From Prorocentrum cordatum (taxonomy: Eukaryota): 64,000 nt of DNA. A model generated the notes under the pieces. The model had not been told where the DNA came from. It was given only the letters and a program-made list of their open reading frames with translations, and ran no database searches. Made by a program: the position numbers and the translations under genes. This document shows positions 7,305-15,492 of the stretch, one piece after another (the stretch's first letter is position 1; the number at the start of each line of letters is the position of its first letter). The stretch spans positions 1 through 64,000 of the forward strand of contig CAUYUJ010000274.1 of the NCBI GenBank assembly GCA_963575745.1, read 5' to 3'.

Positions 7305-7326
7305 TCCGTAGCCATTTTGGCTCAAG
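7305..7326 (+). other. Complete dinoflagellate spliced-leader (DinoSL) sequence at the LINE 5' end
   Basis: TCCGTAGCCATTTTGGCTCAAG matches DCCGTAGCCATTTTGGCTCAAG 22/22. It is followed by GCTAATG and then the element 5'UTR. Confidence 0.95.
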
Positions 7327-7524
7327 GCTAATGCTTTTGCGGGCTGAGCCCGTATTGGCTTCCACGGAGACCGCTAGTCCGCGGCAGTGCCAGAGCGTTT
7401 GCGCTCGACAGCTTACCGCCTACACCGAGGGGTTGGGCTCCCTCATCAGTTTTGTCGCCACGGCCAGGCTGCCTGGCTACGGTACGGCCGTCACTGCTCT
7501 TGTCTCTCGTTCTGTGCGGGCATC

Positions 7525-8697
7525 ATGGCGCCGCCGAAAGGTGCTGCGGCAAGAGACAGGGCAGCACGGGCCAAGAGATGGGTGTGCAGGCACTGCACAC
7601 ATGAGAAAACTGGCGAGCCTTGGCACAATCATGCAGATGCTGTTTCTTGCTTCTTGTGTGGTGGGGCCAAAGGACGTGTCTACAAGTGCGACCTACCTTC
7701 TCCTACGCCCAGTGTTCGTGCACCTGCTGCTGGGGGCAATACTCGGGCGGTGCTGGAGGCCAAGGATAAGGAGTTGGCGGCCCTTCGGAAGCAGGTGCAG
7801 CAGCTGTCTCGGACCAGGCCGACTGAGAACGTGCAGCAGTCGCCTCCGCAGTCTGATGCCGCCACCACTAAGGACGACGCCCAGAGTAAGCAGCAGGAGC
7901 TGAAGGCGCTGGAGCAGGTGGTGGCCTCCCTCGAGCTGGCTGCTAAAGTCAAAGGCGTTGCCCCGCAGACTGTTGTCGGCTATGAGGAAGCTCAAACATC
8001 GTTACGAAAGTTGCGGCAGGAGATCCACGATGCTAAGCCGTTGGGTGCGCAGGTGCATGGCATTGGCAATAAGATTCAGAAGGCTGATCAGCAGATTGCG
8101 AAGCTCAAGGCCACCATCGAGTCGGAAGAGCAGGCCATCGCTGAAAAACAAGCCTTGTTGGTGGATCTCAAGCAGCAGTTGGAGACCAAAGAAAAGGCTC
8201 GGGTGCAGATGCAGAGGGAGCAGATGGAGTTGCTGCGTACTCGTACACCTGAGCAGGTCACTCATGCTCCTGAAGGCAGCGACCAAGCGGTCTTTGACAC
8301 CTTCACGGCCAGTCTGGAGCAACTGCAGAGCCTGGTTCAGTCCCTCGGTGGCGGTGCGCAGTTGGCCGCCAGTTGCGCCCAGTTCGTGGAGCCCTGGCTT
8401 GAGCAAGTTCGGAAGCAGCGAACTGAACAGCAAGAGCAGCTTCGCGCGCAACAGCAGCAGCCACAACAGCAGCAGCGACCTCCCGAGACGTCACAGCAGC
8501 AAGCTGAGCAGCCTGTTCGGCCCGAGTGCTTTGACATGCCTGTACCTGAAGATATGGACCTGGAAGATCTTCGGACATTTGTTGCTGACGCTGGGATGGA
8601 AGCCAGCGCTGATGAGGCGGAGCTGCGTGCCCAGGCCAAGCGCCAGCTGGACTCGTGCCAGAAGCTGCTGGCCAAGAAGCCCAAGGTTGCGGCTTAG
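7525..8697 (+). CDS. LINE ORF1-like protein: N-terminal RanBP2-like C4 zinc finger plus long coiled coil
   Basis: ATG at 7525. WVCRHC...NHADAVSCFLCG motif. Q/E/K/L-rich heptads. Open for 390 aa. Confidence 0.8.
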   Translation: MAPPKGAAARDRAARAKRWVCRHCTHEKTGEPWHNHADAVSCFLCGGAKGRVYKCDLPSPTPSVRAPAAGGNTRAVLEAKDKELAALRKQVQQLSRTRPTENVQQSPPQSDAATTKDDAQSKQQELKALEQVVASLELAAKVKGVAPQTVVGYEEAQTSLRKLRQEIHDAKPLGAQVHGIGNKIQKADQQIAKLKATIESEEQAIAEKQALLVDLKQQLETKEKARVQMQREQMELLRTRTPEQVTHAPEGSDQAVFDTFTASLEQLQSLVQSLGGGAQLAASCAQFVEPWLEQVRKQRTEQQEQLRAQQQQPQQQQRPPETSQQQAEQPVRPECFDMPVPEDMDLEDLRTFVADAGMEASADEAELRAQAKRQLDSCQKLLAKKPKVAA

Positions 8698-13000: not shown

Positions 13001-15015
13001 TGAGTTTGGCAGATCGTGTCAAGAACAAAGGGCTGACCTGGGCGGTGGTGCGCGGCCCACTGAGTGCAGCATGGCTCACGCTTAACAGAATTGGCTGGAC
13101 ATTTCTTGGACCTCATCACTGGCGTAGCGACCAAGGCGAGGATTTTGATCTCCTGCGAGTGGCACCAGCCGACATGAAGGTATATCTGGAGGACTCGATC
13201 AAGCGGTGGCAGGTGCAGCGGCTGGTCTATCACTTGCCTGTGCAGGAGGCGTCTCACGATGTCTGGGAACGAGCTCTTCGACTTGGGCTCCGTGACTTGA
13301 GGCAGGCGCCGCTTGGAGCGCTGAGGGCACTGTGGGCTGATCGGTACCCCACTGCTGCCCGCCTTGCTGCATGGGGAAAAGATGTGAAAGTGCACTGTGC
13401 AGCCTGTCAGTCAGATGACGGATCCTTCGGGCATGTTTGGCACGGATGTCCCAGCTTGTTGCAGCCCGATGAGAGCGAGGAGGCTTCTGGTGTTGAGGTC
13501 TTGTGTGAGAGACACGCGTCTCATCGGGATGCGCCGCGGGCTCTTGGACACCGCCCCCCGCTCGATCCTGAGTTTGACAGACTCTATTTTAGTTACGGTT
13601 TTCCGAGGCTCTCGATCCAGCTTCCATCCCCGCCTGAAACTTCGGTGGTTTGGGAGTGGGGTGACGTTGGGGGTGAGTGGGGGCATGTTACTTTCGGGGA
13701 TGGAAGCGCACAGCACCCCGCCGCGCCTGAAGTCAGGCGAGCGGGGTGGGCCATAGTTCAGCTCAACGATGCGCTCCTCCCTGTCCGCGCGGTGTTTGGA
13801 TCCCTGGAGGGCGCCGTCCAGACCGTGGGCAGAGCGGAGAGAACTGCGCTCCTGCACGCCATGAGGCGTAATCCCAGCATGGAGGTTTTTGTTTCGGATT
13901 TGCTTTCTCTGGTCCAGGAAGGCTTGTCTTGGGACCCTGAATTGGCGTGCGGAATGAATAGATACGCTGCCATCTGGAGGAGTGTCTTTGAGCTGGCGCA
14001 GCGTAGGCCTGTCCAGGACCCTCCCCCTCACTTCGTGTGGACCCCCGCTCACCTCTCTCTCGAGGAAGTCCTGGAGCGAGAACTGGACCCGATAACCCGG
14101 ATCGGGAATGCGTGGGCCGACCTGTTTGCCAAGCTAGCTTCGACTAGGGCCATGATAGCTAGGACGACGGCAGAGGCTGTCGCAGGCGAACTCAAGTTTC
14201 ATCGTGCTACCATTGGGTATATCTCCTGGGCTGCGGCCAGGCTTGCCCGACTCAGACGGTGGACTTCTCTGCCCCCGCCGTCGAGTGTTTGTCGACCCCA
14301 GCCTGCGCCGCAGCTCAGCTTGCATGGTCATTCCTTTTTCCTCGACCCTGACTCAGGAGAGGTGAGATGCATCTCATGTTTCGTCGGGGCATGGACCTGC
14401 AGCACCTTGGCGCATCTGTGTAACGGCCCCTCCAAGTTTTGCCGACCCTCGGCCCTTTCAGCCCTCAAGGGGCAGGAGTGGTTGCGGGTGCGAAATCTAG
14501 CGCGGCCTGTGAAGGCTGCTGCTGTTGTCGAAGCGGACCAGGCCCTGGTGGCTGAGGGTCTGCTGCCGCCCCTTCCTCCCCCTGGAAACCCCACGGGAAA
14601 CGAGAGAGAGGCGGCCATCTGTGATTTTGAGTCGAGAGGTCACACGATCGAGAAGTATGATCGTGTGATGATTTGTTCCACCTGTGCTGGCTTTGTGTTG
14701 CTTCCGCATGGTGTCCCTCGTGCCCTGATGGCCAAGTGTCAGGGCGCTTCCAAGGTGCCATCAACCAGGGACAAACAGTTGCGGAAGCTCTCCAAGGCCT
14801 CCAGAGGCCTGCACCCGTCTACGGGCGAGGTCCTCTTCTGTGCCCAGGGCCCTGTCCCCTCCTCGGCTATGTCCTCCCCTCAGGCTTCTTCCTCCATGTC
14901 ATCTACGGTGGCCTGCGCCTCTCGTCCTGAGAAGGCCACCACTACCGATGGTAAGGGGGTGGGGCGGTTGGAGCGGCGGAGCGGGCGGGGGGGGGTTTCG
15001 GATGACTCTGATTAA
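9958..15015 (+). pseudogene. LINE ORF2: APE endonuclease, reverse transcriptase, zf-RVT-like finger and RNase H, broken by two frameshifts (~10730, ~11335)
   Basis: APE: VTVNV, LLVQEHH, GVAVLV, GNIY, IGGDWN, PHCPV. RT: LLDLTKAFD, QGILAGC, LVDD. Finger: CAAC..GHVWHGC. RNase H: FGDGS, QTVGRAE, FVSD, WTPAH, GNAWADLFAK. The last 1226 aa are open. Confidence 0.92.
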
Positions 15016-15492
15016 CTCGTTTTGTTCTTCGGCGTCGGCGCTGCTGCCTTCGCCCGCTGCCGCCGCTGGCGGCCGCCTCCTGTACGCGAAGTTCAGCATG
15101 TTCGCGCCAGGCGCGCCCTGCTGTCTCCCGCGTGCCTGCGTCCTCTAGCCTAGGGTTGTTCGTTCCCGCGGACGACCCTCTGTCGGCGCCCACCTCCTCC
15201 CCTCCTCCTCCTCCTCCTCCTCCTCCTCCTCCTCCTCCGCCTCCTCCGCCTCCGCCTCCGCCTCCGCCTCCTCCTCCCTCTCCTCCTCCTCCACCGCCGC
15301 CTCCGCCTCCTCCTCCTCCTCCGCCTCTCCTCCTACGCCTCCTAACCCATTCCCTCCTCCTCCTCCCTCCTCCCTCCTCCCTCCTCCCTCCCCCTCCTCC
15401 CTCCTCCTCCTCCTCCTCCTCCTCCTCCGCCTCCTCCTCCTCTCCTCTCCTCCTCCTCCTCCTCCTCCTCCTCCTCCTCCTCCTCCTCCTCC

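Follow-up and report, generated by a model that had tools for sequence, protein, structure and literature searches.

At the locus analysed here, a retrotransposon of the LINE (long interspersed nuclear element) type occupies positions 7305-15492 of a 64,000-nt stretch of Prorocentrum cordatum DNA (assembly GCA_963575745.1, contig CAUYUJ010000274.1, positions 1 to 64,000; hereafter referred to as the window), these coordinates being bounded by the first base of a spliced leader (SL) and the final base of the 3' tail. The unique body of the element opens, at 7305-7326 on the + strand, with TCCGTAGCCATTTTGGCTCAAG, a complete 22-nt dinoflagellate SL (DinoSL) with T as its first base. This sequence was shown to match the DinoSL consensus, DCCGUAGCCAUUUUGGCUCAAG (PMC2606063; printed likewise in the available text of PMC8045281), at 22 of 22 positions, with D represented by T. 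The 21-nt core of the SL occurs once in the 64-kb window, even when up to three mismatches are allowed, and was found in none of 100 shuffles, with no occurrence expected by chance. Neither SL relics nor a second copy of the element were detected in the window by blastn and tblastn.

The entire structure is bracketed by a single 27-bp target-site duplication, of which the identical upstream and downstream copies (GATTGCGCAACTCCCTCTTTCCTACTC) are located at 7055-7081 and 15493-15519, respectively. Between the upstream copy and the SL lies a 223-nt (CCT)n tract with CCG interruptions (7082-7304, + strand), a repeat of the same type as the 3' tail; the latter is a degenerate (CCT)n microsatellite of 297 nt (15196-15492, +) and is preceded by a 180-nt 3' untranslated region (UTR; 15016-15195, +). 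The observed order is duplication, tail repeat, SL, body, tail and duplication. Other than the microsatellite, no long direct repeats were found, and the combination of a target-site duplication and a 3' tail without long terminal repeats (LTRs) is that of a LINE. A previous reading of this DNA, based on its letters only (the sequence-only reading), had claimed that the element body opens with the full 22-nt DinoSL, which is borne out by the perfect match. It had further placed the SL inside the target-site duplication and 199 nt upstream of the ORF1 (open reading frame 1) start codon; the SL does lie inside the duplication, although separated from it by the 223-nt (CCT)n tract, which that reading had not mentioned, and 198 nt lie between the SL and the ORF1 ATG. 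The reconstructed empty site (7065-7081 joined to 15520-15528) forms a small palindrome, in which AACTCCCTC ... GAGGGAGTT flank the end point of the duplication.

Downstream of the SL, the remainder of the 5' UTR (7327-7524, +; 198 nt, or 220 nt when the SL is included) leads to the ATG of ORF1 at 7525. ORF1 (7525-8697, +) encodes a protein of 390 aa, with an N-terminal zinc-finger-like motif (C-x2-C...C-x2-C) followed by a long coiled-coil-like region rich in Q, E and K; its comparison with Pfam Zn_ribbon_RanBP yielded an E-value of 0.65 only. In the window copy, ORF2 is divided among four open frames that overlap one another (7904-10045, 9802-10785, 10400-11374 and 11317-15015), indicative of three frameshifts, which the sequence-only reading had likewise not mentioned. 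The first segment (8729-10045, +, from the first ATG at 8729) represents the N-terminal part and contains no recognised domain. The second (9802-10785, +), in a frame shifted by +1 nt, encodes a putative apurinic/apyrimidinic endonuclease (APE)-like (EEP) domain at about 10231-10707, while the third (10400-11374, +) comprises the end of this domain and a linker. The fourth (11317-15015, +) encompasses the reverse transcriptase (RT), zf-RVT, RNase H and a Cys-rich C-terminus, with the RT motif D at about 12136, the VDD motif at about 12412, zf-RVT at 13327-13452 and RNase H at about 13699-14124.

The endonuclease domain of the window copy, which is split by a frameshift, matched Exo_endo_phos at an E-value of 0.001-0.002 (18-19 bits, compared with the Pfam cut-off of 24.5), and a profile of three sequences produced only weak EEP matches in PDB (CdtB, E 0.005; L1 endonuclease, E 0.15). 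The APE piece nevertheless aligned to the APE region of ORF2 from a second SL-headed LINE (L016, described below) at an E-value of 1.8e-8, and Exo_endo_phos was above the cut-off in four of the 14 relatives tested. For the 1232-aa protein of the fourth segment, zf-RVT was the sole Pfam match, RVT_1 and RNase_H not being reported. A word-indexed search with this protein retrieved eight relatives (best identity 39%; E-values of 1e-149 to 3e-7), one of which, a weak RT relative, derives from Symbiodinium sp. CCMP2456. An exhaustive search with the RT/RNase H piece identified 2758 cluster representatives at an E-value of at most 1e-3 (991 at 1e-10 and 113 at 1e-30), many of which are 2000-3000 aa long. 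RVT_1, RNase_H and Exo_endo_phos were recognised in relatives, in some cases at scores exceeding the Pfam cut-offs, although the six closest of the 14 tested showed no Pfam match whatever, which indicates that the lineage is very divergent.

In an alignment of ten sequences including the window protein, the RT aspartates (D274 and D366-D367) were invariant, the RNase H columns D795, E841 (at least 90% of rows), D861 and D935 were conserved, and the Cys/His columns of zf-RVT were invariant or nearly so; all of these residues, including those of the RT, are present in the window protein. The RNase H region of the window also aligned to that of L016 (E 0.005), and neighbours in the ESM Atlas were unnamed RVT_1/RNase_H clusters. 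No related loci were found among viral contigs, either with a protein query (P0001) or with the L016 RT. We read the element as a LINE with APE-like, RT and RNase H domains, in agreement with the APE-type LINE proposed by the sequence-only reading; for the APE part, this call relies on homology, i.e. the L016 alignment and the domains of the relatives, and not on the endonuclease score of the window itself.

Other copies of the family were identified in public read sets through a comparison of read contigs in which 7270-7309 was masked, and which covers the element downstream of the first bases of the SL. In one run (X1), 644 contigs matched the element at 85% likeness or more (109 at 99% or more, 228 at 95-99%, 225 at 90-95% and 82 below 90%), and three other runs each contained 50-70 contigs on the element. 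Between 15 and 20 variant contigs of X1 cover 7353-7398 in the 5' UTR, variant contigs run unbroken from about 7310 to beyond 7430, and one contig with 12 differences in 217 nt spans 7436-7652. As this diverged contig crosses the border between the 5' UTR and ORF1, the 5' UTR belongs to the element. The other copies were also shown to contain additional bases in ORF2, i.e. one nucleotide at 9852 or 9934, TT within a T run at 10730, and a G at 11334, the latter being present in every contig that covers the site in X1 and X2. Each of these sites falls in the overlap of two open frames and, by frame arithmetic, the extra bases would join the frames into a single uninterrupted ORF2 that starts with the ATG at 8729 and encodes 2096 aa. 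The family looks coding-competent, with the window copy being either a mutated copy or one that carries assembly indels. Contigs that align to 7359 and then diverge, one of which was derived from a run with a different organism label (X12), provide a hint that the SL and the first ~33 nt behind it are held in common. One X1 contig joins 7329 (SL plus 3 nt) to 13029 in ORF2, skipping 5699 nt, with 20 nt on its shorter side; it may represent an internally deleted copy or an assembly artefact. A read depth of 5-20 times that of the body in the first bin and at 7353-7398 was not used, since depth is a single figure per contig and would be inflated for contigs that run into (CCT)n.

The exact 21-nt SL was searched for in public contigs (20 loci in genome_contigs and 119 in IMG/VR), and the window proteins and their relatives were compared by tblastn with 137 SL loci (L004-L140). 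The sole match to RT proteins among these 137 loci was L016, a GC-rich contig of 9096 nt filed in a bacterial metagenome-assembled genome (MAG). This contig was shown to start with an (AGAGAGAC)n/(AG)n repeat (1-116), followed by 21 of the 22 SL bases (117-137; the base preceding these, in the first SL position, is compatible with the repeat unit), a UTR of 93 nt and an ORF1 (ATG at 231) with a RanBP2-type zinc finger (Zn_ribbon_RanBP, 30.9 bits compared with a cut-off of 27, E 1.6e-7). Its ORF2 is a single intact frame of 2536 aa containing Exo_endo_phos, RVT_1 and RNase_H (36.7, 43 and 25.9 bits, respectively), and is followed by a 3' UTR of about 35 nt, an (AG)n tail (9003-9076) and flanking DNA. 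The ORF2 pieces of the window and L016 are collinear over APE, RT and RNase H at 25-28% identity, which makes L016 a different family of the same broad lineage. Since L016 also begins with an SL, the presence of this sequence at the 5' end of a LINE is not a one-off. In both elements, the SL is directly preceded by the element's own tail-repeat type, and a relic SL (CCATTTTGGCTCAAG) behind the SL is absent from both. When further 5' ends were sought in the MAGs with SL contigs, only internal ORF2 fragments (L151 and L152) and a 3' end with (TCAA)n (L153) were obtained.

The best reading of the locus, and one that we hold to be probable, is that the RNA of the LINE was SL trans-spliced and subsequently reverse-transcribed to its first base, as the sequence-only reading had also proposed; the LINE identity, flanks other than those of an SL gene, and L016 as a second SL-headed LINE argue for it. 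In this scenario, a sense transcript of the element made by RNA polymerase II would be trans-spliced with the 22-nt SL like other dinoflagellate nuclear mRNAs. Target-primed reverse transcription would begin on the microsatellite tail, at a nick marking the left boundary of the duplicated 27 bp, and would proceed to the first SL base, so that the SL is retained as the initial 22 bp of the DNA copy. The repeat preceding the SL could be added in either of two ways, i.e. the RT might jump from the 5' end of the RNA to an element RNA and copy about 220 nt of its (CCT)n tail before sealing of the 5' junction, or the element might insert, through pairing of its tail with the target, into what remains of an older tail-only copy that owns the visible duplication. 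A 31-nt interrupted block is common to both (CCT)n tracts but, as 17 of 300 unit shuffles reach that length, it does not discriminate between template jumping and tail-targeted insertion. While the anatomy, the duplication, the multicopy family and L016 are observations, it is from these that we infer trans-splicing as the source of the SL, together with a template jump or a tail-targeted insertion.

The adjacency of an SL sequence and the 5' end of the element would also be expected for a site-specific element of the NeSL/SLACS/CRE type inserted in an SL-RNA gene, in which case the SL would be a remnant of the target. This explanation is regarded as the least credible of those considered, as the complete SL sits inside a 27-bp duplication of unrelated sequence, (CCT)n lies upstream of it and SL-gene sequence is absent after the 3' tail. 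The sequence-only reading had set its proposal against flanks consisting of an SL-RNA gene that merely served as insertion target; the flanks were instead found to be (CCT)n and the duplication. Its distinction from NeSL, CRE and SLACS elements is likewise sustained by the unrelated flanks and by an APE-like domain located N-terminal to the RT. Downstream of the RT, Pfam reported only zf-RVT and no other nuclease domain, no dedicated profile of restriction-enzyme-like endonucleases having been run, and the conserved columns in this region are those of RNase H and of Cys motifs. The SL-RNA genes themselves appear to be represented among the public contigs by six contexts on four contigs (L009, L010 with two that are 870 nt apart, L015 with two, and L021), in which SL|GTAC is followed by a hairpin and then by a T run; these look like genuine SL-RNA genes of several dinoflagellates, binned in bacterial MAGs. 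By comparison, the window reads SL|GCTAATGC (in longer form SL|GCTAATGCTTTTGCGGGCTGAGCCCG), and L016 reads SL|TCGTAC. At the window locus SL|GC is present, but the downstream sequence differs, there is only one SL in the 64-kb window, and ORF1 follows. This comparison was made with the six contexts from other contigs and with seven Fugacium 'SL gene' sequences, rather than with the window organism's own genes, and no likeness to the Fugacium sequences was apparent by eye. Chimeras of small nuclear RNA with human L1 provide an analogue for a related explanation, in which the head of the element is a whole SL RNA (exon and intron) that became attached to the LINE through a template switch as reverse transcription terminated. 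A GC donor and CUUUUG followed by a hairpin have been ascribed to SL-gene introns (PMC6616646), and the bases after the window SL start with GC (a possible donor), contain CUUUUG and continue with the hairpin CGGGC-TGA-GCCCG; in addition, SL bases 1-10 pair with 7355-7368 in the predicted fold. Such a fusion is nonetheless considered improbable, given that all six SL-gene-like contexts start their intron with GTAC and have the T run after the hairpin, not before it, that L016 has neither a GT nor a GC donor behind its SL, that the variant contigs are continuous from about 7310 to beyond 7430, and that neither an Rfam match nor a visible Fugacium likeness was obtained. Slightly less plausible still is an origin of the SL and 5' UTR from an unrelated retro-copied host mRNA fragment located upstream of a 5'-truncated LINE. 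In favour of it, no homologue of the 5' UTR was found in libraries of proteins or RNAs. Against it, the diverged copy (7436-7652) crosses the border between UTR and ORF1, 15-20 variant contigs carry the UTR, a single duplication brackets the whole, and L016 exhibits the same arrangement, with 93 nt between the SL and an intact ORF1.

A closer competitor, which we deem unlikely but worth serious attention, holds that the SL is a DNA-encoded part of the 5' UTR that was acquired once. Transcription would then start from SL base 1 or upstream of it, by an internal promoter or by read-through, without re-splicing at each cycle, and the encoded SL would provide the transcript with a 5' end resembling that of host RNAs. 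Relic SLs, by which re-splicing is usually recognised in retrogenes (available text of PMC12014239), are absent from both LINEs, and the tail repeat upstream of the SL within the duplication fits an unspliced read-through template. Furthermore, in 121 of 130 SL contexts, found in AT-rich IMG/VR contigs, a DNA-encoded SL immediately follows a conserved AT-rich motif, and an RdRP-encoding contig (L088) starts with the SL. On the other hand, this explanation still requires an original trans-splicing event and full-length reverse transcription, and its sole difference from the preferred reading concerns the maintenance of the SL; re-splicing exactly at the terminal AG of the SL would be likewise relic-free, and the 5' UTR folds no better than its shuffles (z -0.36). 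The absence of a relic from both LINEs fits either precise re-splicing at this AG, as put forward by the sequence-only reading, or no re-splicing. Several points weigh against the reading of a trans-spliced RNA copied to its first base. Only two SL-headed LINEs have been seen, and the APE call of the window element is below the Pfam cut-off. With the SL placed behind 223 nt of tail repeat, the copy could stem from unspliced read-through of a tail-SL-LINE progenitor, truncated in the repeat, and the SL would therefore have been inherited rather than newly spliced. Finally, the GC start, the CUUUUG with hairpin and a stretch of 9 nt at 7475-7483 that is perfectly complementary to SL bases 2-10 leave a small chance of a head derived from SL RNA.

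With regard to the 5' UTR itself, the first AUG of the element RNA lies upstream of ORF1, at 7331 and thus 5 nt behind the SL, and opens a frame of 190 codons (7331-7903, +) that overlaps the start of ORF1 in another frame. Used as a protein query, the frame over the SL and UTR obtained no matches among 415 candidates, and it would be interrupted in some copies by an additional nucleotide inserted after 7365; this frame is probably non-coding. No gathering-level Rfam match was obtained in the window, and matches within 7250-7600 were at chance level only. A 20-nt stretch of the 5' UTR yielded three matches in a metagenome scan, all in unrelated GC-rich or bacterial-looking DNA, and none in viral contigs.

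The genomic SL contexts other than L016 were shown to be heterogeneous. Among the 20 contexts in genome_contigs, a microsatellite abuts the SL in four, namely L004 with (GT/GC)n, L007 with (TCA)n, L016 and L018 with (GACA)n, while six are the SL-gene-like contexts described above, two are cut by the contig end (L013 and L017) and eight are of other types (L005, L006, L008, L011, L012, L014, L019 and L020). In L014, the SL is followed by two relics and then by GT. The regions concerned, in which a complete DinoSL immediately follows the microsatellite, are 1-59 of L004, 1-52 of L007 and 1-55 of L018, and the ORFs downstream are without a recognised domain. Neither LINE domains nor a likeness to either LINE were found in the ORFs behind the SL in L004, L013, L018, L070 and others; those of L013 and L018 are 26% identical to each other (E 6e-11). 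L004, L007 and L018, and likewise L013, which is located at a contig edge, may represent retro-copies that LINEs bearing tails of those types have generated.

A further class, 121 of 130 unique genomic DinoSL contexts (IMG/VR, L023-L140, e.g. L072, L075, L041 and L045), consists of AT-rich contigs with a GC content of 0.15-0.30, most of which are labelled giant-virus MAGs. In all 121, the first SL base is A and the upstream 40 nt are at least 75% AT, with the first ATG at a median of 47 nt after the SL; a TTTTTTATTTTT stretch is present in the upstream 40 nt of 37 of the 130 contexts. These contexts resemble genes in which a DNA-encoded SL follows a promoter-like motif, and may be of viral or AT-rich protist origin. 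Pfam searches of 30 downstream ORFs identified DUF4116 repeats (eight), CCCH zinc fingers (two) and an ABC transporter (one), with no virus hallmark among these 30, and a literature search on giant viruses, spliced leaders and dinoflagellates returned nothing describing such contexts. L088 (IMG/VR, 5319 nt) carries the DinoSL at its extreme end, ahead of a 788-aa ORF that contains viral RdRP_1 (E 4.9e-7), and is dinoRNAV-like. As for the surroundings of the element in the window, an assembly gap of 100 N is located at 16444-16543, 0.9 kb downstream of the element, and a run of GGGTTAAGGGTTTGGGTT-type short repeats, which surfaced in the relic search, is present at about 46300-46370. Among 95 long ORFs outside the element, Pfam yielded no matches at an E-value of at most 1e-5, and host genes were not recognisable in the window.

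Dinoflagellate genomes are rich in SL-relic retrogenes, the machinery behind which has only been guessed at. A lineage of SL-headed LINEs would show that element RNAs enter the host trans-splicing pathway and that the RT of such a lineage copies SL-capped RNA to its first base. It also raises the question of how the 5' end of a LINE is defined in a host in which promoters contribute little to regulation. The 'tail repeat|SL' arrangement constitutes a recognisable junction that can be searched for at retrogenes, allowing the link between LINEs and retrogenes to be tested. Taken together, the observations could be accommodated in a joint reading, which takes up the sequence-only reading's proposals of a dispensable internal promoter, re-use of the AG and a role in retrogene formation, is offered tentatively and is doubtful in its entirety: a large LINE lineage without an internal promoter would be expressed as an SL-capped message through read-through in unidirectional gene arrays, with the AG of the SL behind the tail of the preceding copy serving as acceptor, such that the 5' end is renewed at each cycle; its RT would reach the cap and only then jump onto a tail, and the lineage would be an engine of SL-bearing retrogenes. 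If this were true, host mRNAs copied by the same machinery would bear the 'tail repeat|SL' junction, as in L004, L007 and L018.

Several known systems share individual features with the element described here. SLACS, CZAR and CRE of trypanosomatids and NeSL-1 of nematodes are non-LTR elements that insert into SL-RNA genes and encode a restriction-like endonuclease. These likewise represent non-LTR elements tied to an SL sequence, whereas the window element has an APE-like endonuclease, lies in unrelated DNA between the two copies of its own duplication, and opens with the SL as an integral part of its sequence. The ability of non-LTR reverse transcriptases to jump between templates is established, as are tandem or chimeric LINE insertions (R2 and L1), and would explain extra retro-copied sequence at the exact 5' end of a full-length copy; here, the added piece is the element's own tail repeat only, and is found in two elements of different families. 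L1Tc/ingi of trypanosomatids are also APE-type LINEs in trans-splicing organisms but, in the portions of text available (PMC1874656, PMC8190864), are described as starting with a promoter sequence (the Pr77 internal promoter) instead of an SL, and as producing abundant unspliced transcripts. SymbioLINE elements of Symbiodinium are dinoflagellate LINEs with two ORFs, with ORF1 of SymbioLINE-Dnmt being a DNA methyltransferase, and the available part of their description mentions no 5' SL (PMC5890265). No statement of a dinoflagellate LINE beginning with an SL was found in the literature searched, and SL-headed LINEs, though expected in hindsight, are apparently undescribed. DinoRNAV carries the DinoSL, and LINE-mediated retroposition has been proposed for its endogenous copies (PMC10235124, as excerpted); it resembles the present element in being a non-host element with a host SL at its 5' end, but is an RNA virus and not a retrotransposon. 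For retrogenes, the accessible text of PMC12014239 states that retrotransposons may mediate their origin, without excluding retroviruses. The SL-relic retrogenes of dinoflagellates, as portrayed in the available sections of PMC12014239, PMC7245778 and PMC8045281, share with the window element a DinoSL that is encoded in the DNA and heads the retro-copy of a trans-spliced RNA polymerase II transcript. Here, however, the copied message would be the retrotransposon's own RNA, the SL is complete (22/22) and without a relic, and a microsatellite tail is present at the end, with the same tail repeat preceding the SL.

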